Below are positions 5,892 to 63,868 of a stretch of DNA of 64,000 nt, in pieces (position 1 is the stretch's first letter; each line of letters opens with the position of its first letter). Both the position numbers and the translations under genes were made by a program. Origin of the DNA: a virus (lineage: Duplodnaviria > Caudoviricetes); the IMG/VR virus record IMGVR_UViG_3300033121_000493, positions 128,001 to 192,000 of that record; one strand, written 5' to 3'. Below the pieces are notes generated by a model that saw only the letters and a program-made list of their open reading frames with translations, had not been told where the DNA came from and searched no databases.

Positions 5892-6255
5892 GTGCTATAG
5901 ACTCGTAGGCTAGGAGGTATGGTAAAGTGGTATCGTATAGATCGACGAATAAAATGGCGCTATAGGTAAAGCCACTACAGACAGTACTTCTTTCGCGCCT
6001 ATGTGCTTTAATTACGCTGAAATCACATATATCACAAAGATAGTGAACGCTATTAGGGTACTCTAATGTCGTAACTAGCCCGCCGCAAAGTAGACAGTTT
6101 TGACCCTGCAAGCGGCTAAATTTGTACGTATTACCTAAATACTTAAACCAAAACGATTCCTCGTCAGTATTAAGACAATATGTACTTCCATCTCCAAAAA
6201 TAGGATTAGAGGCATATCTAACTACCAGGCGTGAGCTAGTCGACACGTGTGACAT
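5881..6255 (-). CDS. small zinc-ribbon protein, TLPYLL family
   Basis: FWFKYLGNTYKF, CLLC...CDICDF, YDTTLPYLLAYE. Confidence 0.8.
   Translation of the reverse strand: MSHVSTSSRLVVRYASNPIFGDGSTYCLNTDEESFWFKYLGNTYKFSRLQGQNCLLCGGLVTTLEYPNSVHYLCDICDFSVIKAHRRERSTVCSGFTYSAILFVDLYDTTLPYLLAYESIARVT
5902..5939. repeat. 38-bp exact direct repeat, copy 1 (copy 2 at 6603-6640)
   Basis: CTCGTAGGCTAGGAGGTATGGTAAAGTGGTATCGTATA identical at both sites; encodes YDTTLPYLLAYE. Confidence 0.95.
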
Positions 6256-6592
6256 TCTTACACGCTAATAAATACGGTAAAGTTCCTGCAGCAAGCCACA
6301 TTATCTCCATACACCGTATATCTCCTGGGCTCCTGCCGCTCCAGCCAAAATAACAACATTGACACTCCTCATAGTAATAATCAGCTGCTATGTGGCCCAT
6401 CATTGTTTCTAGCCGCGCGTCGCCTCTACATACCGGGCAAGTGGGCCAACCAGAAAATTTGAATTTATATCGATATTCGCCATATATAAACGAAAACTCA
6501 TTGTAGTCTTTATCTAGACGGCTAAGTAAAGAAGTATTCGTAGAGTCATTGTTTACCGAATAAACTGCAATAGTCTCGCTATCCGGTAACAT
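6236..6592 (-). CDS. small zinc-ribbon protein, TLPYLL family
   Basis: FSFIYGEYRYKF, CPVC...CQCCYF, GTLPYLLAC. Confidence 0.8.
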   Translation of the reverse strand: MLPDSETIAVYSVNNDSTNTSLLSRLDKDYNEFSFIYGEYRYKFKFSGWPTCPVCRGDARLETMMGHIAADYYYEECQCCYFGWSGRSPGDIRCMEIMWLAAGTLPYLLACKNVTRVD

Positions 6593-6929
6593 TCGCTGTA
6601 GGCTCGTAGGCTAGGAGGTATGGTAAAGTGGTATCGTATATCTGTACACCAGTAACTTCAAAAACTGGATTAGCATAAGTACCGGCTAGCATCGAAATCC
6701 GGACTACGTACTCAAAGTTACAACAGCTGCATGCTACTACAGCATACAGGGTCGTAGGGTTAAAGCGTAGCTTAGTACCACATAACTGACATTTTTCAAA
6801 TTCTTTAATACGGAACGTATATGCATTTCCTAAGTATTTAAACCAGAATACTTCATGGTTGTCCGTTACTAAACCAGTTGCACCGTTAAATAGTACAAAA
6901 GCACTTGTATAGCTAGCTACTAGTTGCAA
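6579..6929 (-). CDS. small zinc-ribbon protein, TLPYLL family
   Basis: FWFKYLGNAYTF, CQLC...CSCCNF, YDTTLPYLLAYE. Confidence 0.8.
   Translation of the reverse strand: MQLVASYTSAFVLFNGATGLVTDNHEVFWFKYLGNAYTFRIKEFEKCQLCGTKLRFNPTTLYAVVACSCCNFEYVVRISMLAGTYANPVFEVTGVQIYDTTLPYLLAYEPTANVTG
6603..6640. repeat. 38-bp exact direct repeat, copy 2
   Basis: Identical to 5902-5939. Confidence 0.95.
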
Positions 6930-7314
6930 TGTCCGCAGGCTCGTGCGCTAGAAGATATGGTAAAGTTGATGTCCGTATACACGCTGTTTTTATCTGGTAT
7001 GGCTGTGACCTAGTCGGTGTCGTAAACGCGGTATAGCCTGAAAAGCTAAAACCACAACACGTACAAAAATTATGGTCTACATATTGAAGGTCGCTAACAC
7101 CTGTGTGATCGAGTACACCATTACACACCGGACAGCAGTCAGTAGGCGGTTTAAACTTATAGCCGTATACCATGTAGTAGAACCAAAAACAGCCGTTATC
7201 CGCAATAAAAAGTTTCCCCCAGCCCGGATACGGCAAACACTTATCAGTATGCGGGATATCGCGCAGGGTAGCATACTGCGCAACAATAGCAGAAGAAGAT
7301 AAGCAGTCGTTCAC
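6913..7314 (-). CDS. small zinc-ribbon protein, TLPYLL family
   Basis: FWFYYMVYGYKF, CPVC...CTCCGF, STLPYLLAHE. Confidence 0.8.
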   Translation of the reverse strand: MNDCLSSSAIVAQYATLRDIPHTDKCLPYPGWGKLFIADNGCFWFYYMVYGYKFKPPTDCCPVCNGVLDHTGVSDLQYVDHNFCTCCGFSFSGYTAFTTPTRSQPYQIKTACIRTSTLPYLLAHEPADIATSS

Positions 7315-7637
7315 GGTGTGCTCTCAAGACCAAGAAGATACGGAAGAGCTTCAGGAGCTAGTATCAACGTCAATAAATAGGTTTCCTTTATAGCCCAGTA
7401 AGCAGTTTTACATACTGTACACCTCACAGAAAACTCACCTGTGAATATTGGACTAATTTGGCTTAATGTATCACCTTTACATATAGGACAGTGATTACGT
7501 GGTAAAAAATTCTTGTTAATAGTGTATTTACGCTGAGCGTACATAAACGATATAGTATCGTCGGTTTGTGCTAAAATTTTAGATTCAAGACTACTAGTAA
7601 AAGCCGCATACCTAACTAGTTCGTCGTAGCGTTGCAT
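7311..7637 (-). CDS. small zinc-ribbon protein, TLPYLL family
   Basis: ISFMYAQRKY, CPIC...CTVC, ALPYLLGLE. Confidence 0.75.
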   Translation of the reverse strand: MQRYDELVRYAAFTSSLESKILAQTDDTISFMYAQRKYTINKNFLPRNHCPICKGDTLSQISPIFTGEFSVRCTVCKTAYWAIKETYLLTLILAPEALPYLLGLESTP

Positions 7638-7651
7638 TTTTGATTAGCGCA

Positions 7652-7972
7652 CTATAGTGTCATCACATACAGTCTAAACGCGAGCTCGTTATGTAACTTG
7701 ACTGTAAACTTAGGTACATTATTTAGATTATACCCTAATACCGCTATGCCACACGTTGAGCACGCCGCCTCGAAGGTATCAAGAGTATCAAGAACAAAAT
7801 AGCTTACTGGTGTACCGCACATCGCGCATCGGTGATAAAATAACTCTGAACACACATCAAATTTTTTCAATATCTTTTTACCAAAGCGTATAGTCACATG
7901 GGCTATGTGCGGATCATTTTTGTCTACGTGTATATTTGCTACAAGATCAGCTGTTAGTAACTTTTTTATCAT
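7652..7972 (-). CDS. small zinc-ribbon protein, array member
   Basis: CAMC...CSTCG; divergent tail. Confidence 0.7.
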   Translation of the reverse strand: MIKKLLTADLVANIHVDKNDPHIAHVTIRFGKKILKKFDVCSELFYHRCAMCGTPVSYFVLDTLDTFEAACSTCGIAVLGYNLNNVPKFTVKLHNELAFRLYVMTL

Positions 7973-7977
7973 ATAGA

Positions 7978-8367
7978 CTACTGTTTACCGGCAAACCCGA
8001 GCAAGTACGTGAGGCTGTCAATTGTCAGCTTCTCCAGAGAGAACACACCATCTACTATAGTAGCGTAATAGTATAGATGACATTGATTACACGTACCAAA
8101 AACAATCGGCGCAGGCTTATCCGCAAACGGGCCAAGCGTAATTCTAGCCACACCTACGACGAACGCCGCGCCTTCTGTATCGCCGACTCCGACTTTGTAC
8201 ATATCTTTTAGCGGTAGAGTAGCTGAGATATACCGGTCTGACTGACAAATAGGACAACGCCCAGTAAACTCGGTGAACGCTGAAATAGGTAGTTTACCTA
8301 CTTCTACACCGTCAGCCAGCAGAGTTACGGAGCATGCCTCTAAGTCTACGGCATACGCTATCGTCAT
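7978..8367 (-). CDS. small zinc-ribbon protein, array member
   Basis: CPIC...CNQC; tail DSLTYLLG. Confidence 0.7.
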   Translation of the reverse strand: MTIAYAVDLEACSVTLLADGVEVGKLPISAFTEFTGRCPICQSDRYISATLPLKDMYKVGVGDTEGAAFVVGVARITLGPFADKPAPIVFGTCNQCHLYYYATIVDGVFSLEKLTIDSLTYLLGFAGKQ

Positions 8368-8713: not shown

Positions 8714-8714
8714 A

Positions 8715-9539
8715 TTATACCTTATAGTATGTCGGCACCCAGAAACCGTCAACTTCTTTAAAGTCCCCCATCAGTGACGGCAACCTGCCTGAAATAAGTT
8801 TTAACATACACCCAACAATACATGCGATTTCCTCTTCAGCGTGTGGCGATGAACGCATAGTTATAACGTGCCGAATGGCTCGAATATTGAATGACCACAT
8901 TCCGCCAGTGCATATTCCCATAGGAAGAATCCGGCGAAGCATGGACGTTACAGTCTTTTTATACTTGAAATCCTTATCAGGTTCGTCAAGACCCCACAGT
9001 TTAACTAGCTCAGTATATGTTTCTTCAGTCTTAGCAAGTAACTTACTGCACTCATCTAGGGTAGCCTTTTTCTTCTTGGCCTCTTCCTCAGTGTCATTAG
9101 GGTTTTCACGGAGTGACGGCGGCACCCAAAAAGGAATTTCAGTAAATCGAACATAGCGTAACGACTGCTCACTGATAGCGACACCGGCTCTATGCCGATT
9201 CAGTTCTGCTGTAGCTACACGAGTAAGATTTTCAATACCAAAGTTAAACATAGCATGCTCAAAAACAGAGCCGTGTCCTTGCTTCAGAACATTACCTAGG
9301 TGGTCAGCAAGACTTTCTCTTACCTTAGTAACGTTTGGATTCGCGCCGGGTTTAAAGCTGTTGTAACACCGTTTAGCGGCAAGCGACACCAGCATTTCAC
9401 CCTGGTTAGGCATAGTATCAATGTCAGGCGGCAACTTATAGTCACTGCAACCGTTAATGCCGCGAATCCAATCTTCGGCAGCCGTAGTATCGATAGTTGG
9501 AAATCCGATCAAACTAACTTTGATTTCTTTAAACTGCAT
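8715..9539 (-). CDS. thyX: flavin-dependent thymidylate synthase
   Basis: GHGSVFEH, ThyX motif RHRAGVAISEQSLRY, RRILP, NIRAIRH..MR, HAEEEI. Confidence 0.95.
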   Translation of the reverse strand: MQFKEIKVSLIGFPTIDTTAAEDWIRGINGCSDYKLPPDIDTMPNQGEMLVSLAAKRCYNSFKPGANPNVTKVRESLADHLGNVLKQGHGSVFEHAMFNFGIENLTRVATAELNRHRAGVAISEQSLRYVRFTEIPFWVPPSLRENPNDTEEEAKKKKATLDECSKLLAKTEETYTELVKLWGLDEPDKDFKYKKTVTSMLRRILPMGICTGGMWSFNIRAIRHVITMRSSPHAEEEIACIVGCMLKLISGRLPSLMGDFKEVDGFWVPTYYKV

Positions 9540-9566
9540 GACGTTGGTCTTCCTACGCGTAGCGCG

Positions 9567-12453: not shown

Positions 12454-12460
12454 AAAAGCC

Positions 12461-25938: not shown

Positions 25939-26163
25939 TTACAGCTGACGAACTAAGCCATAACGGCGTAAGAGACCGGCTCGTCTAAGTTTTCGTGATT
26001 TTTGATAGCGCAACGCTGTAAGAGATTTAGTATAAGTAGCTATGAGATCTTCTAAATTTTTGATCTTATCATCAAGATCGTCAGTAGTGCCGACTATATC
26101 ACGAGGGCACCACGTGCCTAAACGCTTTAAAATACTAGACTTAACGACAGCACACCGACTCAA
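25939..26163 (-). CDS. small basic coiled-coil protein
   Basis: TTG start overlapping the upstream TGA; basic C-terminus. Confidence 0.55.
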   Translation of the reverse strand: MSRCAVVKSSILKRLGTWCPRDIVGTTDDLDDKIKNLEDLIATYTKSLTALRYQKSRKLRRAGLLRRYGLVRQL

Positions 26164-26195
26164 CGAGTTTTCCTTTTCTGTTTGCGTTTTCCAAA
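26158..26195. repeat. 38-bp direct repeat (37/38 identical to 26577-26614) spanning gene end, RBS and next start
   Basis: ACTCAACGAGTTTTCCTTTTCTGTTT(G/A)CGTTTTCCAAA; encodes FGKRKQKRKTR-stop with an overlapping TTG start. Confidence 0.92.
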
Positions 26196-26582
26196 GCTAG
26201 ACCTGAGCCGCAGTCTAAAGGCGTTAATACGCTTTAAGCTCAGAACACTGGCCCGACTAACGCCTTCTATAACGCGGAACAGATTAATGTATTTCTCGCA
26301 AAAACTAGACTCGTAAAAAGTATCATTAAGCCTTGAAAATGGGTAGTCTATTGGCGACGAATCCTCAAATAAACCAGCAATTTCATCCAGCATAAGCGAA
26401 GACTTCGCACAAACCTCATCACCTACAGACTCAAATCTAATAGCGAAGCTTTTTTTACTACGGTATATACGCCGATCATTACAGTCGTAATCACGTGCGT
26501 CAAGATGAAATATTACTGCTGGATTGCTTTGCCCGACTGTTAACCATTCCCAGGCCAACTTATCATGACGACTACTACTCAA
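26160..26582 (-). CDS. hypothetical protein, paralog family 2
   Basis: YRSKKSFAIRF..VGDEV; C-terminus FGKRKQKRKTR. Confidence 0.7.
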   Translation of the reverse strand: MSSSRHDKLAWEWLTVGQSNPAVIFHLDARDYDCNDRRIYRSKKSFAIRFESVGDEVCAKSSLMLDEIAGLFEDSSPIDYPFSRLNDTFYESSFCEKYINLFRVIEGVSRASVLSLKRINAFRLRLRSSFGKRKQKRKTR

Positions 26583-27016
26583 CGAGTTTTCCTTTTCTGT
26601 TTACGTTTTCCAAATAACCGTCTAACCTCCAACCTTATTAAATTAGCAACTTCTAACATATAAGCATGGCGCAAACCAACTTGACCTATATGTGCACACA
26701 GACGTCCAAAGTTATCAAAAAATAACGAATCATAATCGGCATGTCTTGCCGAGTAGTGTAGTCGTAACACACCACGTACCCAATATCCAATTCCAGTTAT
26801 GTACGATAACTGTTCAGAATTAGTACATTCTATTTCGTCACCTGTGGGCGTAAATATAACAGCAAAACTTTTTTTCTTTCTATAGAATTTTTGCCATTCT
26901 TCCTTAGCGTTTAAGACATCGTGAGGTGAAAAACCGGCAGAGGTTAAACGCAGCACGACTGTGCGGGTGGTATCTACAATTAACCGCCAATATAGCTGGT
27001 ATAGTTCGCTATTCAA
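26579..27016 (-). CDS. hypothetical protein, paralog family 2
   Basis: YRKKKSFAVIF..TGDEI; C-terminus FGKRKQKRKTR. Confidence 0.7.
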   Translation of the reverse strand: MNSELYQLYWRLIVDTTRTVVLRLTSAGFSPHDVLNAKEEWQKFYRKKKSFAVIFTPTGDEIECTNSEQLSYITGIGYWVRGVLRLHYSARHADYDSLFFDNFGRLCAHIGQVGLRHAYMLEVANLIRLEVRRLFGKRKQKRKTR

Positions 27017-27020
27017 TTAC

Positions 27021-27458
27021 TCACTCCTCGAATAGTATTGTGTAAAGCTGTGACCGTAACTTGTTAACCCGATGTAAAGCCTCCAAATTTGCGATACTGG
27101 CAGCGCTTATACACATGGCAAGCGCATGAAAATTGCTCCAGAAAATTTTAGCGTACATAGCAAGTCGCGCCGACTCGTATGTATCGTTAAATATAGTTGA
27201 TATGGCTATGTTGGTTTGCATCTCCATATCGCGAGAAAACAGTGACGTTATTTCATCACCATTTGACGAAAAAGTAATACTCCAGCTTTGCGGCCGAGTA
27301 GAAAACCGTCGCGCGTATATCGGATGGTTTGACGAGTCGGCAACGAGTTGCTGGGCGACTGATGACTTAGGAGCGCGTAGCATGCACACTACAGTTGCAA
27401 TATCCGTATTGTATATATTCCAAACAAATTTAGTGTTCATATACCACGAATAGCGCAT
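27021..27458 (-). CDS. hypothetical protein, paralog family 2
   Basis: RPQSWSITF..NGDEI, FWSNF, VNKLR shared with the two downstream genes. Confidence 0.65.
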   Translation of the reverse strand: MRYSWYMNTKFVWNIYNTDIATVVCMLRAPKSSVAQQLVADSSNHPIYARRFSTRPQSWSITFSSNGDEITSLFSRDMEMQTNIAISTIFNDTYESARLAMYAKIFWSNFHALAMCISAASIANLEALHRVNKLRSQLYTILFEE

Positions 27459-27664
27459 ATATACGCAACTCTGACAGCATGGCCTACAAGATAACCGCGC
27501 CTAGCAATTGCGGTAATTATAGTTCTATCCCAACTGTAGGCCGTAGAGATTAAAGACAAATTAATCTGCATGTCGTATGACCTTGGGCTTGCCACATTAA
27601 AAAACAGAGAGTTCTCAATTTTAATATAAGGCACGCCCAGGTAAGATAATATATTTAGCATCAT
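27437..27664 (-). CDS. hypothetical protein
   Basis: 75-aa ORF coupled to its neighbours. Confidence 0.45.
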   Translation of the reverse strand: MMLNILSYLGVPYIKIENSLFFNVASPRSYDMQINLSLISTAYSWDRTIITAIARRGYLVGHAVRVAYICAIRGI

Positions 27665-27957
27665 TGACGCTTTTTACTAAACGCGTCTTTACAAAAGTCT
27701 AGTACAGAATCAGTGATAACCGTAACACGGATAGAGACCGTCAAACGTGTAAGATCAAAAAACAACCGATCAAGATGAGCACGTGTGTCTAACAGCCTTT
27801 CAAAACAGTAATCTAAGGCGTAGCTATGACGCCTAGCTAGCGCTGTAGAGCTATTGTCCTCAAACTCGCCGGGCATAAATCTAAAGAAGTCAGACTGGCG
27901 ATTACGTAAAGATAATGCTTCCCAAATCTTAATTGTTGCTTCAGTCGGCTTTTGCAC
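27661..27957 (-). CDS. hypothetical protein (MQKPTEATIKIWE family)
   Basis: First 13 aa identical to 28302-28598; RRHSYALDY motif. Confidence 0.7.
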   Translation of the reverse strand: MQKPTEATIKIWEALSLRNRQSDFFRFMPGEFEDNSSTALARRHSYALDYCFERLLDTRAHLDRLFFDLTRLTVSIRVTVITDSVLDFCKDAFSKKRQ

Positions 27958-27959
27958 GG
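27919..27959. repeat. 41-bp direct repeat (40/41 identical to 28560-28600) spanning a gene start
   Basis: TTCCCAAATCTTAATTGTTGCTTCAGT(C/T)GGCTTTTGCACGG. Confidence 0.92.
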
Positions 27960-28014: not shown

Positions 28015-28326
28015 CTAAACAACACGAAAATTCATTCTAACGCTCCTTGCAGCACGCTTTAGTATAGTCACTATACTGTCGACGTATACGCCAAGTGGAG
28101 CAGCGTATTGCGCAGTATTCCACTTGCTAGCAGAATAAGTATCAAACTCGACAAAACAAATCTCCAGGGCTACATCGTAAGACAATGCTTGCATATTACC
28201 CTTATTACCATGAAAAAATGTAGCAGTACCGATATAAATAGAGGTACGATCACTCTGTATCGAGGCTTGAGCTATAGATAACATGCCTACTTTAGACAAC
28301 ATCACGACCATGCCTTTGCGCAACAA
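28015..28326 (-). CDS. hypothetical protein
   Basis: 103-aa ORF between the repeat copies. Confidence 0.5.
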   Translation of the reverse strand: MLRKGMVVMLSKVGMLSIAQASIQSDRTSIYIGTATFFHGNKGNMQALSYDVALEICFVEFDTYSASKWNTAQYAAPLGVYVDSIVTILKRAARSVRMNFRVV

Positions 28327-28598
28327 CTACTGTGTATCTCGCTACAGACTGTCGAAGTGTAGTTACCCACGACGTGCGAATGAGTAGATTGGTTAAAAAG
28401 CTCAGTAAAACCAGTAGGTACGCTAGTTTCAACCACGTCACACACGTAAAAATTCAAACCAAAGCTACGCTTTCGGTATATAGCCGGTTGAGTACCGTCA
28501 TGTCCAGATAGCACAAATGTAAAATTTGTCGAACAGCGTGGGTCGCGGTTTAATATACTTTCCCAAATCTTAATTGTTGCTTCAGTTGGCTTTTGCAC
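28302..28598 (-). CDS. hypothetical protein (MQKPTEATIKIWE family)
   Basis: YRKRSFGLNF resembles the family-2 motif. Confidence 0.7.
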   Translation of the reverse strand: MQKPTEATIKIWESILNRDPRCSTNFTFVLSGHDGTQPAIYRKRSFGLNFYVCDVVETSVPTGFTELFNQSTHSHVVGNYTSTVCSEIHSSCCAKAWS

Positions 28599-28905
28599 GG
28601 CGCAGTTTTGATCTCGCTCTCAAGGTTTTGTATGCGCGATAAAAATATGGCTCAAAGCTTAATTGGTCGCACGGTATCCACACTTCGCTACACTCGTTAG
28701 CTATTGAAATGTTTTTATGCCAGCTGACATGGCGACACTTTGCTATCTTGTAATTGGCGTGCTCTAGCACTTCTAAAACAACGACACGGCGTACACCGCC
28801 CTCAGCCCACATGAGCTCAGATGCGATATACGCCGTGTCGCCTGGTTTGACATCAGCGACGACAACAGCCTGTTTAAATTTTCTGGCTTGACGCGCCATA
28901 GTCAA
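28582..28905 (-). CDS. hypothetical protein, possible SH3-like barrel
   Basis: VKPGDTAYI...RVVVLEV...VWIPCDQL. Confidence 0.55.
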   Translation of the reverse strand: MTMARQARKFKQAVVVADVKPGDTAYIASELMWAEGGVRRVVVLEVLEHANYKIAKCRHVSWHKNISIANECSEVWIPCDQLSFEPYFYRAYKTLRARSKLRRAKAN

Positions 28906-31898: not shown

Positions 31899-32480
31899 CT
31901 ATATAGCCGGAGTCCACGAGAATCGTAAGATGTTTACAAAATCTTTAAATGGCTGCATTATGAGTTGTGTATGTTTAGTGTTCCAGGTCAGCATAGTGCC
32001 TTCTACTGGATACTCGGCTGATGGCGTATGCTGCAACGCATTAGTGTAATTATGTAGACATAACTGTACAGTCGCCCAAGGCGCTGTAAAACATACGCAT
32101 ACTTTAGTATTGGCACCATGCCTATCTATCGTTTCTTCCCACACCGTACGCCAAAACTTAGTGCTTTTATATCCGTCAATCCTATGAGTTAAGAACCAGT
32201 TAAAGTTAGTTATTTCCGCTACAGCATTTTGGTCTTTAACAGCTCTAAATATTACCGGAGAAGAAATACGCTCAGAAAGCCACTCTGGCGTAAAACCAGT
32301 AACTTTACTAGCGCCTTCTTCAGCCTCGCGCCGCAGAGCTGCTATCTGTAGCGCGCTAGCGCCAAGATACTTCAACAAAGCGTTGCACACCCGAACTTCA
32401 AACTTTTCTTGTTTGGCCGAGTTCAAATTTTCGAAAAACGCATCAACCTGTTCCGATACAGTCGTCAGTCCGCCACGCAC
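31899..32480 (-). CDS. hypothetical protein, weak Hjc-type resolvase resemblance
   Basis: KQEKFEVRVCNAL N-terminus and W..T/PFKDFV C-terminus; directly downstream of the recA-like gene; no clear PD-(D/E)xK. Confidence 0.3.
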   Translation of the reverse strand: MRGGLTTVSEQVDAFFENLNSAKQEKFEVRVCNALLKYLGASALQIAALRREAEEGASKVTGFTPEWLSERISSPVIFRAVKDQNAVAEITNFNWFLTHRIDGYKSTKFWRTVWEETIDRHGANTKVCVCFTAPWATVQLCLHNYTNALQHTPSAEYPVEGTMLTWNTKHTQLIMQPFKDFVNILRFSWTPAI

Positions 32481-33724
32481 AGTTTTTCCTTGTGAAAGAT
32501 GTCAGGCGAGAATTTAGTACAGCGTGCAATGTGTAGATGATCTTGTAGGTCGCTCATCAGTTTACTATCCTGGCGTAACGCAATGCCAAAATCTTCACCT
32601 GATACCTTATCAACGCCTAGTTGCCTACAGCTAAACGTAGGATTTTTTACAGTTGGGCCTTGTACTACATTACAAATATCTTTAAGCCCGGTGTCTAGCT
32701 CGTAGCCAGCTAAAAATTGCGCCGTAGCTAGATCCCATTCCCACTTCGGTACTTGCTTTTGTTTTCCAGTCGCTGGATCGATTATCCAAGTCCAGCCAAA
32801 TCGTACATCGCACTGTAATTTATCAACGCCAATAGCGTTTTTGTGGCATTTAATGCGAACTAGGTTATAGCCATAATCCGCGTCGCCACGTTCACGCTTG
32901 ATAACTGAAAATCTTAGATCAATAGTACCCTGATAGTCTGGAGCTTTACCGCCTGGCGTATTACTCTGTGGTTGTCCCATAGAGAATCCAGTTGCAACGC
33001 CGCCATCTTTTTCATGTCGTACAACAAGTACAATCCACGGCAAATTTTTAAATGTCTCAACTTGCAACCATCGACTGATAGCATTGGCTATCTGCATACC
33101 TTGGGCTAAGTTAGTTTCACCCTTAGTTTCATACTTCTCATTGATGTCGGCGGTGGCTCGCCCAGTTAGCGAATCAATAATAATACAAGCTGGTATTAAC
33201 GGTATACCAGTACCTAACTTATCGCCTTCTTGTAACTTAAACGTTTTACGATAAAGACTAACGTCGCCGCTTAGCGAAGTAGCCCACTCGTCAATATTAC
33301 TGGGCCTGCGGTACTGCCATTGACGGTCTGTCACATCGCCAATGATGCCAGCAGACAGCTCAGGGTTATACTTATGCTCAGCATCAAACAAGCGCGCGTA
33401 TCCGCCATTTGCAATTACCCACTTAGCGAGCTCAAAGCAAAAGCTGGACTTGTGCGAAGCTGGTTTACCAGCGAGCATAGTCAAAATGCTCATAGGAAAA
33501 ATATCGTTTTGCAAAACATACTGTAATGCTAGCGACGGTATCGGTATCCCAAACTTAAAAACCTGGTCTGCTGATCCGACAAGCACATCGTCACTTCCCA
33601 TTACAGCACGAGCTTGTTTTAGCTCAGCTGCAAAAAAAGCATCTAATGCGTCAGATCCGTCTGTCAACGATTTTGCTGGTTTTTTAGCCACAAAAGCCTC
33701 AAAAAGCCAGAGGTGCAAAAGCAC
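32465..33724 (-). CDS. RecA/UvsX-like recombinase
   Basis: Walker A variant AGKPASHKSS, FDAEH, IIIDSLT, TPGGKAPDY, VRIKCHKN. Confidence 0.85.
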   Translation of the reverse strand: MLLHLWLFEAFVAKKPAKSLTDGSDALDAFFAAELKQARAVMGSDDVLVGSADQVFKFGIPIPSLALQYVLQNDIFPMSILTMLAGKPASHKSSFCFELAKWVIANGGYARLFDAEHKYNPELSAGIIGDVTDRQWQYRRPSNIDEWATSLSGDVSLYRKTFKLQEGDKLGTGIPLIPACIIIDSLTGRATADINEKYETKGETNLAQGMQIANAISRWLQVETFKNLPWIVLVVRHEKDGGVATGFSMGQPQSNTPGGKAPDYQGTIDLRFSVIKRERGDADYGYNLVRIKCHKNAIGVDKLQCDVRFGWTWIIDPATGKQKQVPKWEWDLATAQFLAGYELDTGLKDICNVVQGPTVKNPTFSCRQLGVDKVSGEDFGIALRQDSKLMSDLQDHLHIARCTKFSPDIFHKEKLCVAD

Positions 33725-33754: not shown

Positions 33755-35128
33755 TTAACCTGGTTTATTCGGCATATTGGCCATCATAGCCGTCAACGCC
33801 GACAAATCAATAGGAGCCGGGTTAACACCGGGGATATGCGACTGTGACTGCACTGGTGGCGTTGTAGCCGTTGGACCAGAAGCAGTTTGCGGTACCCGCA
33901 ACGGCTCAGCGACTGTCTGGCTATCAAAAACCATACCGCCGGGCACTGCAGCCGGTTTTGGCTGCTCAGCGGCTGTCTGGCTATCAAAAACCATACCGCC
34001 AGGCACTGCAGCCGGTTTTGGCTGCTCAGCTGGCGTAGTCGCAAAATTAAACTGTATTGGAGCATTATCTGCTGCAGCGTGTTTAAACGAACCGCCACGT
34101 TGCATTGTCATTAACTTTTGTTTCAGACGATCAGGAAGAATGTTAGGAGTATCGCGGAATGACCACGCAAGTAGATCGTCTGGTAACCCAACCGACAACG
34201 CGTTAATCATAGCCGTTTCGTCGGAGTGTACGCGCAGAGCTTTGTCCCACGGCAATTGCCAGGTTTTTCTGACAATGTCAACTGGAATTTTCTGAACGTC
34301 ACTGACCGTGATTGCCACGTTAAACGCATCGTCGTCGTCAAATTTACTGCTTGTTTTATTGGCACTGAAATTAAGGTTACCAGCGTTTGGCTGCTTAAAC
34401 TCTCCAAAAGCTGTACCTGGCTTATGGAATTGTAGCATCCTACCAGTGTCCAATCCTATCACGCCATTATTCTTGAAAATCTTATCCCACTCTTGAGTAT
34501 TAAGCGAAACAGCACTTTCGTACTCTTCCATCACAAGCTGCTGAAGCGCGGATACGGCACGCGATTTCATGCCGATAATACACATCAACTGCGGCTTCTG
34601 ACGACTAACGTACTTAGACGGACCTTGCGCGGTCATCTTACCTGTTATAGCACCGCGTATAAACGCCATAAGTTTAGCTTTAGTTTTGGACTTTGGTCCA
34701 AAGACCGCATCTCTAGCTTCTTTAACCCAGCCATACCACCGCGCATCTGGAGCATTGCCAGTCTCAGTAAGACTATACAGCGTGTTGCGGATTGTCTCCC
34801 ACACACGCAGACCGCGCTTCTCACTATCGTCGAGCGTATCGTCGCCTTTGATATGAATCAAAGTTGACAACTTTGGCTTGCCGTCGGCACCGCCGATGTA
34901 ATCAACAGCGCGATACTTATGGCATACCCAACTGCCAACATCAGACGGCTCTCGCCCTGTACGAATAGGCAACTCATTAAGCCCGTCAGCTGTTAGTTCT
35001 GGGTAAATACGCAATTCAGTACCGGATTGAGTCACATTGTGGTACGATAGGCCAGCTGCTTTAGCTGCTTCAGAAAGGAAAAGAACGCCAGCAAGTCCAG
35101 TATTACCAGTGTCTGTAGAAAAACTCAT
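33755..35128 (-). CDS. hypothetical protein, candidate ssDNA-binding/recombination protein with a P/A/Q-rich tail
   Basis: First gene after a strong promoter and directly upstream of the recA-like gene; ELRIYP strand; low-complexity C-terminus. Confidence 0.45.
   Translation of the reverse strand: MSFSTDTGNTGLAGVLFLSEAAKAAGLSYHNVTQSGTELRIYPELTADGLNELPIRTGREPSDVGSWVCHKYRAVDYIGGADGKPKLSTLIHIKGDDTLDDSEKRGLRVWETIRNTLYSLTETGNAPDARWYGWVKEARDAVFGPKSKTKAKLMAFIRGAITGKMTAQGPSKYVSRQKPQLMCIIGMKSRAVSALQQLVMEEYESAVSLNTQEWDKIFKNNGVIGLDTGRMLQFHKPGTAFGEFKQPNAGNLNFSANKTSSKFDDDDAFNVAITVSDVQKIPVDIVRKTWQLPWDKALRVHSDETAMINALSVGLPDDLLAWSFRDTPNILPDRLKQKLMTMQRGGSFKHAAADNAPIQFNFATTPAEQPKPAAVPGGMVFDSQTAAEQPKPAAVPGGMVFDSQTVAEPLRVPQTASGPTATTPPVQSQSHIPGVNPAPIDLSALTAMMANMPNKPG
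33904..34030. repeat. 60-bp tandem repeat (about 2.1 copies) encoding AEQPKPAAVPGGMVFDSQT(A/V)
   Basis: Lines 33901 and 33961 are nearly identical. Confidence 0.95.
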
Positions 35129-44532: not shown

Positions 44533-45549
44533 TTACGACACGGCGGCGTTGTAAGCCGTTTTGGCTACTGCGCGTTCTGCAGCAAAAAATCGAGTTTCGT
44601 TCATCGGAGCAATACTGTTACCCGAGTACATATAGTCCATCCATGACAAATAGATAAAGTTCAAAAGATGGATACCGTACTTAAACATTGCCGCAACAAC
44701 AGCATCGTACGGAGCTACACCCTCAGCTTGTAACTTTTGGGCATGCCGTAACGCGTAACGCGCAAAATAGAAACTAGGGTCTATAGCAGATGCAAACGAC
44801 AAACCTTTCAGCGAATCGTGCCACATTTTCAAAATCGCCATCCACAATCCACGCTCAGGCGATTCTAGCATGACAGCTGAGTCTGCGTCTACGTCATTGT
44901 TGGTTAACTCATCAGCAACAACGATACAAGCTTTACAAAATTTTGTTGTCGTGCGTGGACTACTTTTATCAAGGTACCACATAGGGTCAACAAAATTTTG
45001 AATTATGCTAGCTACCGTTAGAGGATTTATACCGTGAATCCAAGACACACGTTTCCACAGTCCGTGGTTAGACGTGGCGACAATTGCGTTAGTTATCTCT
45101 TTCTGCATACCGTTTTGCGCGGCCGCTAATATACTAGGAGTTAACGGTCGCCCATTTGACGTAGCAGACGCTATAAAAGCCTTATACTTATCAGAGCACG
45201 CTTTAGCGGTAAGAAGTACACGCGCATTCAGCACGTCAGTCTCAGACGCTTCTTTAAACCCGCCTAAATTTGTGGCAACCGGCTCAAACCAGGCTGCACG
45301 GATTGCATTATTGGCTTCTTCAAACGTAGTCGGAGGACTGTCTGTTGGAAAGACTACATAAACTCCAGTATCAAAATCATTTGTTTCGTAGAGCGCGTGC
45401 CAAATATCAATCAGTAAATTCGCGTTATTCGCTGTAGGAATAATGACATGCATTTTCTCTAACGTATGGATCTTACTGTACGAAGTCTTAAAAGTATCTA
45501 TATGTGTTTTGCCGGTGTTGTCGACAAAATGATGCGTGATTTCTGGCAT
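44533..45549 (-). CDS. hypothetical protein with HhH-like motif
   Basis: WIHGINPLTVASIIQNFVDPMWY; start overlaps the Rad50 stop (TAATG). Confidence 0.55.
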   Translation of the reverse strand: MPEITHHFVDNTGKTHIDTFKTSYSKIHTLEKMHVIIPTANNANLLIDIWHALYETNDFDTGVYVVFPTDSPPTTFEEANNAIRAAWFEPVATNLGGFKEASETDVLNARVLLTAKACSDKYKAFIASATSNGRPLTPSILAAAQNGMQKEITNAIVATSNHGLWKRVSWIHGINPLTVASIIQNFVDPMWYLDKSSPRTTTKFCKACIVVADELTNNDVDADSAVMLESPERGLWMAILKMWHDSLKGLSFASAIDPSFYFARYALRHAQKLQAEGVAPYDAVVAAMFKYGIHLLNFIYLSWMDYMYSGNSIAPMNETRFFAAERAVAKTAYNAAVS

Positions 45550-47795
45550 TAAACCTTTGCCTCTTTGCCGCCATTTAACACAATGGTTTGATCAAAAGCT
45601 GTGCGTAACTGGGGCAAATGCGTAATAATGAATATTTGCATCCCTGAATTCATAGCGTAACTTTGAATATACGTTAAAACGTCCAATAAATGTTGCTTGT
45701 TATCCTCATCCAGTGCGTCAGTTGGTTCATCAAGCGCCATCATACCAAAATTACTAGCAAACGTCTCGTTGATTGCCAGTAACAGACTTAGAGAGAATCG
45801 CACTTTCTCGCCGCCAGACAGTGAAATCGCGTCTCTAACTGTGCTGTCGTCAAACGTGCATTTGAACGAGTAGCCATCTTCATTAAGGCTAGCTGTAGCT
45901 GTAAACCTAGACTGCATCAGAGTTAAAAAGTACCTAAGCTTTGAATCAATCAAGTCTAACTTAGCCGTAGCCAGAACTTTAGGTAACGCGTCTCTGTGAA
46001 ACACGTCACGCGCATCTGTAAATAGCTGACGCGCAAATTTACATTTAGCCGCACGCTTACTCAGCTCGTTAACGCGCGCGAGTTGAGCCGTCAACGTGGT
46101 TAGACGTAGCTGTAGCGCGCTATGCTGCTCTTCCAATCGAGCAAGTGCTATACGCGCCGCTGAGTTTTTTTGCAATAAATCTTGACAATTAGAAATGTAC
46201 TGAGCGGATAATCTCCCAATATCGCCTAGCTTATTTATATCAATTTGGCACGTTTCATATTCTGCAGCCACAGCAATAGCGTGCGATTTCGCGGTATTAA
46301 GCTTTGTACTGAGCGCGTTTAGACGTATACGCTCAGAATTACACTGGCTTTTAATAGTAACGTAGGCGTCAGTTATACCTTTGTAAACGGCAACGTCTAC
46401 ATTAGCAAACTCGCTTAATTTAGCAGAAGCTGCGCTGAATTCGGCAGCCTGCTCTGAGTAAAACTGCGCTCGCTGCTTAAACATTGCAGCTTTGGCGTTG
46501 TACTCAGCAACTGCAATATTGTACTCCGTAACCGCTACATTATACTGTCGCTGTTTTGATAGCAGCGCGTCAAATTTAGGCTGCAAATCAGCAATTGCGG
46601 CTTTATGGTTTGTCACGTGCGTAGCTACGTCTGGAACTTCCTGGTCGCACGTAGGGCATTTGACAACACTACCAAGCGTATACTTACTGTAGGCTGCCAG
46701 CGCAGTTGTATGCCCTCTAAGTTCGGTATCCAACTGCGTAAGCAATGCTGCGTCTTCTGGTGTCCACGTCAACGTAACCGGGCTAGGCACTTTTGTGCTG
46801 TGAGCCGTGTACTCAGTCTGAAAAGCTACAACTTGCTTTTTAAGCTCTTCAATCCGTGTATTGATTTTTGCGTACTCAGCGGCACCATTTAACTTAGTTT
46901 CAGCGTCAGCTGCCGCAGCGGCGTAAGACGTCACCTGGTTTGATATTTCATCAATTGCCTTAACTGTGACTGCAACTTCAGCTTCGGCCTGAGTAACCGC
47001 AGTATTCGCTGCGGCTAATTTAGTACTGAGCTCAATGTTGCGTTCGCGTAATACTGTGTTTTTGTTAAATAAGTCAATGTCAGCCAACAACGCGTCGCGG
47101 TCAATAGTCGCTACTTCAGCCTGCTGCGCTCGTATAGCTGTTACTAAGTCTGTTAACTGTAAGTTACACGCGGTAATGTCTTTAGATAACTGTTCAGCGC
47201 TGTCCGTTAGCTGTACGGTAGGTATTGTTGTTACATGGTTACCAAGTAGTGTCCAAATAGATTCGTATTTATCTAGCCCTAATAGCCCATGCATTAATTT
47301 AGTTCGCGAAGCTGGGTCGCTGTGAATGATATCGTTAATTTTGCCTTGTTCTATAAACGCGTAACCGCCAAGTGTCGATGGTACTGTACCTAGTATTTCA
47401 GATAAACGTTTGTCTACATCGTTAACGCCTGTTATTTTTTCGAGCTCTTTTCCGCTAGCTGTAATCGTCAACGTCGCGGATTGACGAGCGCGTGTATATG
47501 TATCATCTTTTTTTACGGCAGTCAAGGTACGCGTTATGGATAACTCTAACCCATCATGAGCTACCTCTAAATGGATAGAGCCGCTAGAGGCTTTACCGTC
47601 TGGAGTATCCCTGACGTAATCAACCAGGTTGGCAAAACGTCTAAAATGCCCCGTTATGCCAGAATAAATAGACTCCAATAACGTAGATTTGCCAGAACCG
47701 TTATGCCCAACAAACCCAATTATGTTACCGGTTAACTCAAATTTAGCGTCCGTAAACGTACCGATGTTCTTTAAGCGTATAGACAATACTCGCAT
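45549..47795 (-). CDS. SbcC/Rad50-like ATPase
   Basis: GHNGSGKST, Q-loop IEQG, long coiled coils with CPTC zinc hook, LSGGEK signature, LDEPT, IITH. Confidence 0.95.
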   Translation of the reverse strand: MRVLSIRLKNIGTFTDAKFELTGNIIGFVGHNGSGKSTLLESIYSGITGHFRRFANLVDYVRDTPDGKASSGSIHLEVAHDGLELSITRTLTAVKKDDTYTRARQSATLTITASGKELEKITGVNDVDKRLSEILGTVPSTLGGYAFIEQGKINDIIHSDPASRTKLMHGLLGLDKYESIWTLLGNHVTTIPTVQLTDSAEQLSKDITACNLQLTDLVTAIRAQQAEVATIDRDALLADIDLFNKNTVLRERNIELSTKLAAANTAVTQAEAEVAVTVKAIDEISNQVTSYAAAAADAETKLNGAAEYAKINTRIEELKKQVVAFQTEYTAHSTKVPSPVTLTWTPEDAALLTQLDTELRGHTTALAAYSKYTLGSVVKCPTCDQEVPDVATHVTNHKAAIADLQPKFDALLSKQRQYNVAVTEYNIAVAEYNAKAAMFKQRAQFYSEQAAEFSAASAKLSEFANVDVAVYKGITDAYVTIKSQCNSERIRLNALSTKLNTAKSHAIAVAAEYETCQIDINKLGDIGRLSAQYISNCQDLLQKNSAARIALARLEEQHSALQLRLTTLTAQLARVNELSKRAAKCKFARQLFTDARDVFHRDALPKVLATAKLDLIDSKLRYFLTLMQSRFTATASLNEDGYSFKCTFDDSTVRDAISLSGGEKVRFSLSLLLAINETFASNFGMMALDEPTDALDEDNKQHLLDVLTYIQSYAMNSGMQIFIITHLPQLRTAFDQTIVLNGGKEAKV

Positions 47796-47797: not shown

Positions 47798-48961
47798 TTA
47801 ACCTAGGCTACTTGCGTCTGGGATGTCATTAACATTTCTAAACGACAGCAAATAATCATTTGGCTGGCGAGCACCGGCCAGATTACTAACAAATTCGTGT
47901 AAATTAGGCGATACAGTCTTATCGACAAACGTATCAATGACGTCTTGCGTGTTTATACCCACAGCTGCTCTAGGTAAATCACCGCTGGACGCTCTATCGT
48001 GCATAGGCATCATATGGAGATGCACCCTGTTTTTAGCTATTAGAGGGCTTATAGCGCGTTTAACCTCTGCTGGTACTTCAGGTACCGAGGTACTGAACTT
48101 AAGGGCTATAAAAGGCGCGCATAAAGAATCTGGCACCTTTACGCCGTAAGTATCAAACGTGCCACTTATCGACTTTAAACCATCTATTAGTTTAGCAATA
48201 CGATCTGGCAACTGATCGCAGAATGTTAGCAAAGAATCGCGAGTTGTCACAGCAAAACCTATAAACGGACGTGTTACAAGTTTACGCCGAGACACAGACA
48301 ACGTGCCTTTAGATTTTTCTACTGTAATAAACGATTTAAGAGTTGGCTCACTGATACTACGCATCGACGAACTACCGGTGTAAAACCAGTTAACGTCGCC
48401 TGTGACGCCTGAATCTGGGTTACCATGATAATCACCAGCCAAAAGTAACTTAGACTGTTTAACCCAGGCAGGATCAAATGTCCAAGCACCTTCTAGCCCC
48501 ATTGCTTGTGGAAACAACTGGTGAACGCAGACAATGTCACAGATAGGCGCGCGCGACATAGTAGCTTCAGCTTGATCTCTAGGTAGGTTATCAAAACCCC
48601 ATAAAGATACGCCGTCAGCTGCCGTATACGGAGCGACGGAGTCACCGCTCAAATGGGTAACGCTAGCGCTGCAGTGCTTGGCCAAATCTAGCCACTGAAA
48701 ATCACCGTATTGGCGGTCATGCTGGCCAACTATGTATACGACGTGTAAGCCACGCAGCTTTTGTAAAACCCAGCCTACGGTTTCAGCAGGTGGATGCTGT
48801 TTATCAAAATTATCACCAAGTAATACTAGAGGTGTAGTTACGGGCTGAGACCTACAAAAAGCCGTAAGCTGCTCAAGCGCGAACTCAGAGTCGCCTCGCA
48901 TGCTTGGGTATGAGCTGTAGATCGTTTCAGACGCGTGTAAATCACCAGCAAAAACTAGCAT
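47798..48961 (-). CDS. SbcD/Mre11-like metallophosphoesterase nuclease
   Basis: GDLH, LGDNFD, GQHD, HQ, GDYH, YTGS. Confidence 0.92.
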   Translation of the reverse strand: MLVFAGDLHASETIYSSYPSMRGDSEFALEQLTAFCRSQPVTTPLVLLGDNFDKQHPPAETVGWVLQKLRGLHVVYIVGQHDRQYGDFQWLDLAKHCSASVTHLSGDSVAPYTAADGVSLWGFDNLPRDQAEATMSRAPICDIVCVHQLFPQAMGLEGAWTFDPAWVKQSKLLLAGDYHGNPDSGVTGDVNWFYTGSSSMRSISEPTLKSFITVEKSKGTLSVSRRKLVTRPFIGFAVTTRDSLLTFCDQLPDRIAKLIDGLKSISGTFDTYGVKVPDSLCAPFIALKFSTSVPEVPAEVKRAISPLIAKNRVHLHMMPMHDRASSGDLPRAAVGINTQDVIDTFVDKTVSPNLHEFVSNLAGARQPNDYLLSFRNVNDIPDASSLG

Positions 48962-48973: not shown

Positions 48974-49321
48974 CTAAAAATCATCGTCATGGAAAGTGTA
49001 GTTATCTTCATCAGTTTCATCAGCCCATTCAGTTGAATTGTCAAAATCGTCATCCTCAAAATCGTCCTCATCGTCCTCAAAATCGTCATCATCGTCATCA
49101 TCGTCATCAAAATCTGCATCGTCATCAAAATCTTCGATGTCGTCACGGGGGTCTGGTTTGTTTGGATGCATTGGATGCTCGCGAGGATCGTACTCGCCTC
49201 TGTTTAAAGGTGTGGCGTCAAATGGTGAAATATCATTATCAAATTCACTGCTATGTGGGATGTCAGAATTAAGCATAAAACGAAACGCTCCTGGGGCGCT
49301 CCCTTGGAAAGTGCATCGCAC
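48974..49321 (-). CDS. highly acidic low-complexity protein
   Basis: C-terminal half is D/E/F repeats (EDFDDDADFDDDD...). Confidence 0.6.
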   Translation of the reverse strand: MRCTFQGSAPGAFRFMLNSDIPHSSEFDNDISPFDATPLNRGEYDPREHPMHPNKPDPRDDIEDFDDDADFDDDDDDDDDFEDDEDDFEDDDFDNSTEWADETDEDNYTFHDDDF

Positions 49322-53364: not shown

Positions 53365-53373
53365 GTGGTGTGT

Positions 53374-55406: not shown

Positions 55407-55480
55407 TACTATACTCCTATATTATACGTAATCGTAGCTTATTTAGTATACTCCTATGCTTCTACTTTAGCGAGTTTTAT

Positions 55481-58020: not shown

Positions 58021-58023
58021 TCC

Positions 58024-58314: not shown

Positions 58315-58316
58315 TG

Positions 58317-62411: not shown

Positions 62412-62431
62412 AGTAAAACGCGCGAAATAAC

Positions 62432-62471
62432 AAAGAAAAAGCGGCGGGCACTACACCCGCCGCAACTTTTT
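62432..62471. terminator. bidirectional intrinsic terminator between convergent units
   Basis: A-tract, GCGGCGGG-7 nt-CCCGCCGC stem, then T-tract. Confidence 0.85.
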
Positions 62472-62546
62472 AGTGACATACTGCTTTGAGGCATACGAAT
62501 AGCAGCCAGATCCCAAGCAACATTCCGAACACCTTGGAATGGAAAC

Positions 62547-63149
62547 TCAATTTGCACCTTCGCTAGTCAGCGTCGGCATACCAGTGAAACCGCGCAACCA
62601 GCCGTATTGCCACAGCTTGATATCATTCAGAATATCGCCGGGCAGAACTTTAAACGTCACAGGGCTGGTACCTGGTAAAACAGCGGCAGGATCATTGCTG
62701 AGCCCGCGCTTGTTGGAAAACGCAACTTGAGTCGTCTGGCTGCCACTACCTGCCACCGTCACCGATTTTTGCAATTTGCTGGCAAGGAGTTCGCCGGGAA
62801 TACGTGAAATGTAAGCCATGAGTAGTGCGTTCTGCGCTGCCTTACGGAAAATTGCTGGCGCGGCTGACTCTTCAAGTCCAGCGTACGTTGTGGCGAGATC
62901 GAAACTCGCGGCTACTGGTACGTAGAAACGCGTGCTAAAAATAGTGTTACCGTTCTCGTCGATAACATTCCAGTACCCATCAGCACCAACAACGATGTTG
63001 GCCACGCGGTCGGGGCTCATACCACATCGCCGGGCAATGCAAGCGGCGACAAGAAACACTGGAAGCGTAAGCATAAGCGTAGTAAGCGTATAAAGATACG
63101 CAACGACGATACCAGTGTACGACAGTGCGCGCAGCGAGCGATTGAACAT
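62547..63149 (-). CDS. hypothetical membrane-anchored protein
   Basis: N-terminal hydrophobic stretch; AAGGA RBS. Confidence 0.6.
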   Translation of the reverse strand: MFNRSLRALSYTGIVVAYLYTLTTLMLTLPVFLVAACIARRCGMSPDRVANIVVGADGYWNVIDENGNTIFSTRFYVPVAASFDLATTYAGLEESAAPAIFRKAAQNALLMAYISRIPGELLASKLQKSVTVAGSGSQTTQVAFSNKRGLSNDPAAVLPGTSPVTFKVLPGDILNDIKLWQYGWLRGFTGMPTLTSEGAN

Positions 63150-63172
63150 TTGTGTTCCTTGGGTTGGCGGTT

Positions 63173-63224
63173 TTTGTTACAGGCGGAAGTGGTCACACAG
63201 ACAGTGCAAGCTTAGCGGAGGGAG
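63173..63224. repeat. 52-bp direct repeat (46/52 identical to 63559-63610)
   Basis: TTTGTTACA.GCG.AAGTGGTCACACAGA..G.GCAAGCTTAGCGGAG.GAG; the copies bracket the wHTH gene. Confidence 0.88.
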
Positions 63225-63513
63225 TAAGTTTGAAAAACTTAACGTTACCTTTTGTCTTAGTGACAGTTATCAGTTTTGCTGCGCGCAATCTACGTAGTAT
63301 GCGATTTCTGTACGACCGGTCGATGCGCTTTCCAGTTTTGCCGATATACAATCGGCCAATCTGATCTCCGAAAGCTTCGTCGACGCTGTTGATACTCAGC
63401 AAGATAGCCCTGGCATTTGATGAAATATGTAACGGTTTATGGTTTTTGGGTTCAGTCTTTGCGATAGTTGTCGTAGCGAGCCAACTACGCATTGGTGAGT
63501 TCGTTTGGAGCAT
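63193..63513 (-). CDS. winged helix-turn-helix protein (PadR/MarR-like)
   Basis: AFGDQI...NRILRRLRAAKLITV..GNVKFFKLTPSAK. Confidence 0.65.
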   Translation of the reverse strand: MLQTNSPMRSWLATTTIAKTEPKNHKPLHISSNARAILLSINSVDEAFGDQIGRLYIGKTGKRIDRSYRNRILRRLRAAKLITVTKTKGNVKFFKLTPSAKLALSV

Positions 63514-63562
63514 TTGTCGCCTTTCACGTACGGTGAGAGTTTGTCACGGTCGAGGGTCTTTG

Positions 63563-63868
63563 TTACAAGCGAAAGTGGTCACACAGATCGCGCAAGCTTA
63601 GCGGAGCGAGCCAGACAGATACTAGTATCTTTTTTAATTTGTTAGTTGTAACACTGTGGTAATTTTCTACATTTAATCGTATGTGGTTATCCAGCGAAGA
63701 AAATGGGTACTGCCTAGAGCGATCTGAGGCTACTCCAATACAACGTAAAGACATTGCTGTCAGTTTAACAAATGAAATGGATGTTTTCATTGCGTTACTA
63801 TATGGACCACATCTCATTAACGCTCCAATAAGCTCTTCTGATTCTACCCAGCGCTTTTTACATATCAT
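63563..63868 (-). CDS. hypothetical protein
   Basis: 101-aa ORF abutting the upstream stop. Confidence 0.5.
   Translation of the reverse strand: MICKKRWVESEELIGALMRCGPYSNAMKTSISFVKLTAMSLRCIGVASDRSRQYPFSSLDNHIRLNVENYHSVTTNKLKKILVSVWLAPLSLRDLCDHFRL

Follow-up and report, generated by a model that had tools for sequence, protein, structure and literature searches.

The junctions between small tandem genes of an uncultivated phage carry four pairs of short, near-identical direct repeats, here called islands 1 to 4. We consider it probable (roughly 60%) that these islands are patches of about 40 bp that are homogenised by homologous recombination and also serve as joints for it. The repeats lie in a window of 64,000 nucleotides, bases 128001-192000 of the 202,582-bp virus record IMGVR_UViG_3300033121_000493, which is rated complete by CheckV; positions are those of the window unless the record or the genome is named. 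Direct counts reproduced the identities that had been proposed from the sequence, namely 38 of 38 positions for pair 1 (5902-5939 and 6603-6640, spaced 701 bp apart), 37 of 38 for pair 2 (26158-26195 and 26577-26614, 419 bp), 40 of 41 for pair 3 (27919-27959 and 28560-28600, 641 bp) and 46 of 52 for pair 4 (63173-63224 and 63559-63610, 386 bp). In a self-BLAST of the whole genome, the four pairs received E-values of 6e-13, 1.5e-10, 2.4e-12 and 5.7e-7, respectively. The pairs are also unrelated to one another, as first supposed: nhmmer profiles of the islands, run against the 202.6-kb genome, matched only their own copies, of which there are two for each island and four for island 1, including two weaker ones at 5546-5576 and 6928-6978.

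Every island lies 0-12 nt from a called start or stop, which agrees with the gene-junction location originally given, and all four are gene termini on the minus strand within tandem small ORFan genes. The original prediction had described the repeats as bracketing one or two diverged genes. This does not fit the anatomy, in which each pair consists of the homologous ends of two tandem paralogs or two duplicated gene units. The genome-wide comparison of repeats with gene boundaries that it had called for yielded 22 local exact repeats of at least 16 nt; those in small-gene arrays are mostly located 0-27 nt from gene boundaries, so the association with junctions reaches beyond the four pairs, and the rest are internal to large genes. 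The repeats are not assembly artefacts, because independently assembled contigs from other samples (L004, L012, L010, L011 and L028) cover both copies of every pair at 99.9-100% identity.

Anatomy and synonymous identity of the islands

Island 1 belongs to an array of at least nine, and up to 12, tandem zinc-ribbon ORFan genes (CxxC...CxxC; 106-133 aa) at 5173..8367 on the minus strand, which independent gene calls on contig L004 reproduced. Its first copy (5902..5939, minus strand) consists of the codons for YDTTLPYLLAYE near the C-terminus of gene 5881..6255 and lies 11 nt upstream of the start of gene 5529..5891. The second copy (6603..6640, minus strand) holds the same 12 codons near the C-terminus of gene 6579..6929, again 11 nt upstream of the start of a gene, 6236..6592, and all 12 codons are identical between the copies. 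The bodies of the two genes are clearly homologous (z = 19.3), and a TLPYLL-type motif or a close variant forms the end of 7 of the 9 aligned array members. Other members encode the same motif with different codons, which indicates that the nucleotides are not rigidly fixed by function. An AlphaFold (AF2) model of the family (predicted local distance difference test score, pLDDT, 80; predicted template modelling score, pTM, 0.74) shows an all-beta body with the TLPYLL motif as a well-packed C-terminal helix; a search of the PDB with this model returned no fold match at E <= 0.001.

Island 2 is the end of one gene and the beginning of the next. Copy 1 (26158..26195, minus strand) comprises the last 11 codons (basic tail FGKRKQKRKTR) and the stop of gene 26160..26582. 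Gene 25939..26163 contributes its TTG start and second codon, preceded by the Shine-Dalgarno sequence AAGGA. Stop and start overlap by 4 nt, and the AAGGA lies 7 nt before the TTG. Copy 2 (26577..26614, minus strand) repeats this arrangement, from the tail and stop to the Shine-Dalgarno sequence and TTG start, where gene 26579..27016 meets gene 26160..26582. Three tandem ORFan paralogs of 140, 145 and 145 aa occupy 26160..27458 on the minus strand, the third without the basic tail. The gene bodies of pair 2 are clearly homologous (z = 13.8); the AF2 model of this family was unusable (pLDDT 46).

At island 3, the repeat is a gene head. Copy 1 (27919..27959, minus strand) contains the GTG start and the first 13 codons (MQKPTEATIKIWE) of the open reading frame (ORF) A1 (27661..27957), and copy 2 (28560..28600, minus strand) contains the GTG start and first 13 codons of ORF A2 (28302..28598), overlapping the live C-terminus of gene X2 (28582..28905) by 17 nt. 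Both ORFs have 98 codons. Their bodies show weak homology, with an ungapped z of 3.2 and a score that 9 of 5000 shuffles reached. A1 is given as 98 or 71 aa depending on the gene caller, and A2 is left uncalled in complete contexts and has no entry as a called gene. A weaker extension lengthens the island to 69 nt at 81% identity, reaching 27987 in copy 1, where it is a dead 14-codon remnant of an X2-like gene tail behind gene X1; in copy 2 the extension is the live C-terminus of X2. No homology was detectable between X1 and X2. The dead X2-like tail upstream of A1 implies that the old duplication unit comprised two genes.

Island 4 measures 63 nt at 84% identity, with the 46/52 core given above. 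Copy 1 (63162..63224, minus strand) spans the 3′ end and stop of gene 63193..63513 followed by non-coding bases, with gene 62547..63149 starting 13 nt further downstream, and copy 2 (63548..63610, minus strand) spans the 3′ end and stop of the unrelated gene 63563..63868. The reading register of the island differs between the two genes, as does the codon at which they stop, and no homology between their bodies was detectable (z = -1.4). Gene 63193..63513 has a weak match to the helix-turn-helix (HTH) phage family phrog_10086 (E = 0.003), which was all that Pfam and PHROGs searches returned for the array families; the ESM Atlas gave nothing. Translational coupling, which had been proposed to be preserved throughout, is kept at pairs 1 and 2 and is not clearly so at pairs 3 and 4.

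The original prediction had also pointed to identity at synonymous positions, and this was borne out statistically at islands 1 to 3. In protein-guided codon alignments of these pairs, restricted to identical residues, the same codon is used inside the islands at 12/12, 10/11 and 11/12 residues (33/35 in total), whereas outside them the counts are 11/35, 12/31 and 7/20 (30/86; 31%, 39% and 35%). The differences are significant for each island (Fisher p = 3e-5, 3e-3 and 2e-3), and under random codon choice a complete match of the island codons would have a probability of 1e-6 to 1e-5. Random expectation from the codon usage of the genome is a codon identity of 0.32-0.39; the values outside the islands equal it, and the gene bodies are therefore saturated at synonymous sites. 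Given synonymous identity inside the islands against such saturated bodies, protein constraint alone cannot explain the islands. Their edges are sharp, in that conserved residues just past them already differ synonymously.

No sigma-70 promoter-like sites overlap the islands, where counts are not above those of shuffled sequences, and neither terminator-like sites nor Rfam families nor a conserved fold were found in them. Seven of the eight island regions fold no more stably than the shuffle mean (z from +0.3 to +1.9), and the eighth has z = -0.45. A 9-mer common to islands 1 and 3 was set aside, as it is not a genome-wide motif. Dual coding was likewise rejected at all four islands, the second frame being closed or unused.

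Elsewhere in the genome, other small-gene arrays illustrate different outcomes. Two contrasting families are found at genome 88216-88799 and window 64170-64873 (partly past the window end): one is a plain duplication with a uniform identity of 85%, and the other is a mosaic in which islands of 41 and 60 nt at 95-97% identity alternate with diverged sequence that is only about 50% identical. One genome thus shows decay left undisturbed beside recombination in patches. Two tandem microgene families with a 235-bp period, at genome 80360-80834 and 84582-85261 (outside the window), have a further arrangement, in which the last 29 nt of a gene are the first 29 nt of the next gene in another frame. 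No part of the unit is better conserved than this dual-coding overlap, which explains the conserved junctions of those two arrays.

Strain contigs and a mosaic boundary at island 2

Looking up exact proteins led to contigs from several wastewater samples, all of near-identical strains. The phage is present in SRR23702477, SRR32380191, SRR6747781 and the WANG18 wastewater runs behind ERZ28655916, ERZ28656156, ERZ27309394 and ERZ27309396. Of the contigs, all except one, L014, have the reference layout with both island copies at 99.9-100% identity, and no empty site, single-copy variant, deletion junction or circle was present in any recovered contig. Recent whole-unit duplications were absent at the four loci; with no recent identical whole-gene copies, nothing suggests a gene accordion. 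Polymorphic conversion tracts were also absent, the single-nucleotide polymorphisms in contigs from other samples lying outside the islands.

The exception is a 910-bp contig from a k = 31 Logan assembly of run SRR23702477. From window 26610 downstream, L014 is 100% identical to the reference for about 820 nt, which include genes 26160..26582 and 25939..26163. Mismatches occur at 26611, 26613 and 26615, the next 8 nt match the reference, and the first 80 nt of the contig have no match in the 202-kb genome or in IMG/VR. Positions 1-135 of L014 (a variant of window 26577-26703) present the end of an unknown ORF and an AT-rich spacer in place of gene 26579..27016, and a dead 18-codon remnant of a family-2 tail leads into island 2. 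The protein of gene 26579..27016 has no record in the sample of L014. The boundary between shared and unshared sequence falls within 4 nt of the edge of island 2 (26614), and the resulting order of foreign gene, dead tail remnant, island and downstream gene is that of the reference at island 3 copy 1. A homologous crossover within the island between diverged donors would give exactly this signature. The crossover in junction homology that had been postulated thus has one natural case in its favour, a switch from 100% identity to unrelated sequence at an island edge, and the other contigs keep the reference layout.

Contig ends cluster near the islands (record 133931/133945, 154577/154635 and 156582) and at record 154403-154409. 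We do not take these as structural variants, because such ends can result from low coverage, from repeats when k = 31 and possibly from read sets held in common. At the last of these sites (window 26403-26409), three contigs from two samples end inside gene 26160..26582, just past the conserved internal motif of the family; a polymorphic breakpoint may be the cause, or else a gap in coverage or read data common to the samples.

Recombination and its alternatives

In the reading that we favour, the units would have arisen by old tandem duplication, either of one gene (pairs 1 and 2, perhaps pair 4) or of a two-gene unit (pair 3), and the gene bodies would then have diverged to synonymous saturation. 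The junction stretch may have stayed alike because it holds the codons of a terminal peptide under constraint, the region in which translation of the next gene begins, or both. T4-type recombination could act on these still-similar stretches, with repeated short-patch gene conversion or crossover erasing synonymous differences and producing sharp-edged islands of identity, and the same patches may serve as joints at which neighbouring genes are replaced, lost or gained. The same junction does occur with different neighbours, both at pair 3, where X1 and X2 have no detectable homology, and at pair 4, where unrelated genes use the island in two frames. According to the passage of PMC2839356 that cites Singer 1982, less than 50 bp of homology is enough for T4-type recombination. 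We infer that recombination rather than a nucleotide-level function keeps the identity, and the same holds for the direction and topology of the events and for the enzymes that act.

The catalysts originally proposed were RecA-like and Mre11/Rad50 proteins. The genome encodes a candidate UvsX-like recombinase (32465..33724, minus strand; phrog_97, E = 8e-14), a Rad50/SbcC-like ATPase (45549..47795, minus strand; Pfam SMC_N, AAA_23 and SbcC_Walker_B) and an Mre11-like phosphoesterase (47798..48961, minus strand; Metallophos, E = 2.8e-4). The Pfam RecA model matched nowhere in the genome, so that the proposed genes are present as UvsX-like and Mre11/Rad50-like ones, the former assigned by PHROG only.

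Several observations weigh against this explanation. The two genes of the island-1 pair are each other's closest paralogs by body sequence too, and hence offer no phylogenetic incongruence that would prove conversion. For three of the eight folded stretches, one copy each of islands 1 to 3, 193-194 of 200 shuffles (about 96%) fold as well or better, a lack of structure that is common in initiation regions, and island 2 contains a plausible Shine-Dalgarno sequence (AAGGA, 7 nt from the TTG) and start codon, so that a function at the nucleotide level may contribute. With an identity of only 84-88%, island 4 is not recent. L014 is short, was assembled at k = 31 and contains only 80 novel nt, so it may be a graph chimera, and its boundary could instead reflect selection keeping the ribosome-binding site of the downstream gene. 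Finally, the recovered contigs are near-identical, and conversion, gain or loss is not directly visible at islands 1, 3 and 4.

Some of these points would equally be expected if each island simply acted in cis on the gene downstream, whether in translation initiation, in coupling or as the target of a regulatory protein or RNA, and were kept by purifying selection with no recombination at all. We regard this pure nucleotide-level function as unlikely, though less so than the other alternatives. Each island lies in a 5′-proximal region, at about -97 to +39 relative to a start codon; the Shine-Dalgarno spacing at island 2 and the weakly folded stretches fit open initiation regions; the island persists in L014 though the upstream ORF that read it is gone; and island 4 is conserved despite its two reading frames. 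Initiation regions, however, tolerate many substitutions, and identities of 38/38 and 40/41 are far beyond what they need. Other junctions of family 1 use different codons for the same motif, a Shine-Dalgarno sequence is lacking from the genes that follow islands 1 and 3, the searches for promoters, terminators, Rfam families and conserved folds were negative as described above, and no motif is common to the four islands. For annotation, this means that a conserved terminal peptide, the basic tail at island 2 for example, may owe part of its conservation to the initiation region of the next gene.

More doubtful still is a cassette system proper, in which about 40 bp of coding sequence would be both the head of one gene and the tail of the one before. 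Recombination of the UvsX type between such heads would excise single genes as small circles (701, 419, 641 or 386 bp), which would re-integrate at an island in the same or another phage, or would swap in the alleles of co-infecting relatives; the bracketed genes would then be acquired ones. This would be an integrase-free analogue of integrons or of the mini-circles of PeSLs (promoter-early stem-loops; PMC2839356), which provide a precedent, and, if true, would explain about one tenth of the genome as hyperdivergent microgene arrays with translational coupling intact. Direct repeats of 38-52 bp at distances of 0.4-0.7 kb are adequate for T4-type recombination (PMC2839356), non-homologous genes have common junctions in pairs 3 and 4, and L014 places island 2 in a foreign context. 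Against these stand the absence of empty sites, single-copy variants and circles from all contigs, and the lack of a tyrosine integrase (PF00589) in the genome, for which the search controls were positive. The bracketed genes are not demonstrably acquired: in pairs 1 and 2 they are clearly paralogous to the genes beside them, and nothing stands out in their base composition, G+C content and G+C content at third codon positions (GC3) of the array genes lying within about 1 to 1.8 standard deviations of the genome mean, with no indication of a foreign origin. The island-1 and island-2 families, moreover, comprise the proteins of this phage only, as judged from 5.8 billion clustered proteins, 1.8 billion representatives searched with HMMER, IMG/VR and JGI metagenomes, so no donor pool is visible. 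Outside acquisition, circle integration and gene accordion are proposals of which there is no sign here, though nothing refutes them either.

It is very improbable that the duplications are recent and that the bodies were driven apart by a fast, targeted process of hypermutation or diversity generation that spared the ends. The sharp difference in divergence between ends and bodies would suit such a process. Yet no reverse transcriptase (PF00078) was found in the genome, the bodies differ by many indels and all base types and are synonymously saturated, unlike the products of adenine-targeted diversification, the plain 85%-identical duplicate elsewhere in the genome decays uniformly, and contigs from other samples are 99.9-100% identical across the bodies. 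An assembly artefact or chance is effectively refuted by the assemblies from other samples, which span both copies of all pairs without difference, and by self-BLAST E-values of 6e-13 to 6e-7, although several short contigs do end at or near islands, showing that the repeats can confuse assemblers.

Gene content of the phage and comparison with known systems

The genome has 45% G+C, and nearly all of its genes are on the minus strand. It carries many back-to-back arrays of small, fast-evolving ORFan genes. The zinc-ribbon array sits between thyX (8715..9539) and a ribonucleotide reductase gene (769..4566; 1265 aa) that is interrupted by a LAGLIDADG homing-endonuclease intein and has a TSCPD domain at its end. 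A family-A DNA polymerase at 36672-40082 is encoded together with an N-terminal uracil-DNA-glycosylase-superfamily (UDG-like) domain in a single 1136-aa ORF, and the genome also encodes a primase, a DnaB-like helicase and a gpA-type terminase. An initial impression of a RuvC-like gene at genome 125674..126210 was not confirmed by Pfam. The closest matches of the DNA polymerase are from SPO1-like phages at only about 24% identity, and 50,697 phage records yielded no nucleotide match to the genome. In IMG/VR and JGI metagenomes, pattern and protein scans gave no matches for ThyX, its 374-aa neighbour or the family-1 profile, nor for the DNA of islands 1 and 2 or the novel part of L014.

Three further repeats were noted. 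The first 77 bases of the record recur at 202443-202519 with 100% identity, 63 bases before the record end; they may belong to a terminal repeat, or the genome may be circularly permuted and its assembly overlapping at the ends. At window 33904-34023, inside the 457-aa gene 33755..35128 beside the UvsX-like gene, 60 nt are duplicated in tandem at 97% identity. A run of degenerate 15-21-nt repeats lies at window 49041-49127, where the minus strand would encode an acidic Asp/Glu-rich tract.

Among known systems of local gene variation, poxvirus accordions and integron cassettes resemble the present case in concept, a gene array that changes in copy number or exchanges cassettes. Unlike accordions, the four loci contain no recent identical whole-gene copies, and unlike integrons, the phage has neither an integrase nor an attC-like folded site. 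A diversity-generating retroelement is a poor parallel, as PF00078 is missing and the bodies differ by indels and all base types. Concerted evolution, or ectopic conversion, of tandem paralogs resembles the islands in its short, synonymously identical tracts within saturated paralogs; it is usually inferred from phylogenetic incongruence or population data, neither of which is present here, and the genes of pair 4 are non-homologous.

The internal-protein (IP) loci of T-even phages encode diverse injected proteins whose only common part is an N-terminal capsid targeting sequence (PMC3012670), and their associated repeated elements are thought to mediate shuffling (Repoila 1994, as cited in the pertinent passage of PMC2839356). 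Island 3 appears similar in being a conserved 13-codon N-terminal leader on barely related small proteins, ending in I-W-E. This end resembles the (L/I)-x-E site of the prohead protease. A Peptidase_S77 search for a T4-type prohead protease found nothing, and its controls were equally silent. The likeness is no more than an analogy: island 3, unlike the IP loci, has two copies only, A1 and A2 are at most hypothetical virion proteins, and some callers omit A2.

Linker or boundary sequences, at which recombination between short conserved sequences at gene boundaries gives sharp mosaics (Botstein/Campbell, as presented in PMC2839356; short boundary sequences, in PMC3029335), offer another likeness. 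The L014 boundary is of the linker type; in those papers, linkers are described between the genomes of temperate phages. Unlike linkers, the repeats here occur within one genome, between tandem paralogs and inside coding sequence. The part of PMC3029335 concerned with mosaicism states that most phage mosaic boundaries are without conserved sequence and that illegitimate recombination is hence usually invoked.

The closest described system is that of the PeSL cassettes, found in the hyperplastic regions of T4-type phages (Arbiol et al. 2010, PMC2839356; Comeau et al. 2014, PMC4122927), where less than 50 bp of homology serves for inserting, deleting and replacing neighbouring genes (PMC2839356, PMC4122927). 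The logic is the same: short junction repeats lie between small ORFans in a large, lytic-type phage with T4-like recombination genes, and the 3′ part of a PeSL holds the Shine-Dalgarno sequence and start of the next gene, as island 2 does. PeSLs are, however, intergenic, with a sigma-70-type promoter, a stem-loop terminator and one consensus at about 50 sites per genome, whereas the islands are mostly coding, pair-specific and unstructured, without a promoter or terminator match, so that promoter, stem-loop and genome-wide consensus all fail here. Mini-circles, and indels between relatives bounded by the repeats, are features of PeSLs; among the contigs here one, L014, has a homology boundary at the edge of island 2, and the others match the reference layout. 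Mechanisms of this kind are already known; the present case extends them to an orphan phage lineage and to pair-specific coding junctions, in that the statistics point to recent homogenisation at several independent junction patches of one 203-kb phage, one of which also coincides with a natural mosaic boundary. Should the patches be confirmed as joints, a lineage unrelated to T4 would be able to shuffle genes in the PeSL or lambdoid-linker manner at junctions that code for protein and differ from pair to pair, and the four loci, with predicted deletions of 701, 419, 641 and 386 bp, would provide testable sites of turnover in accessory arrays.

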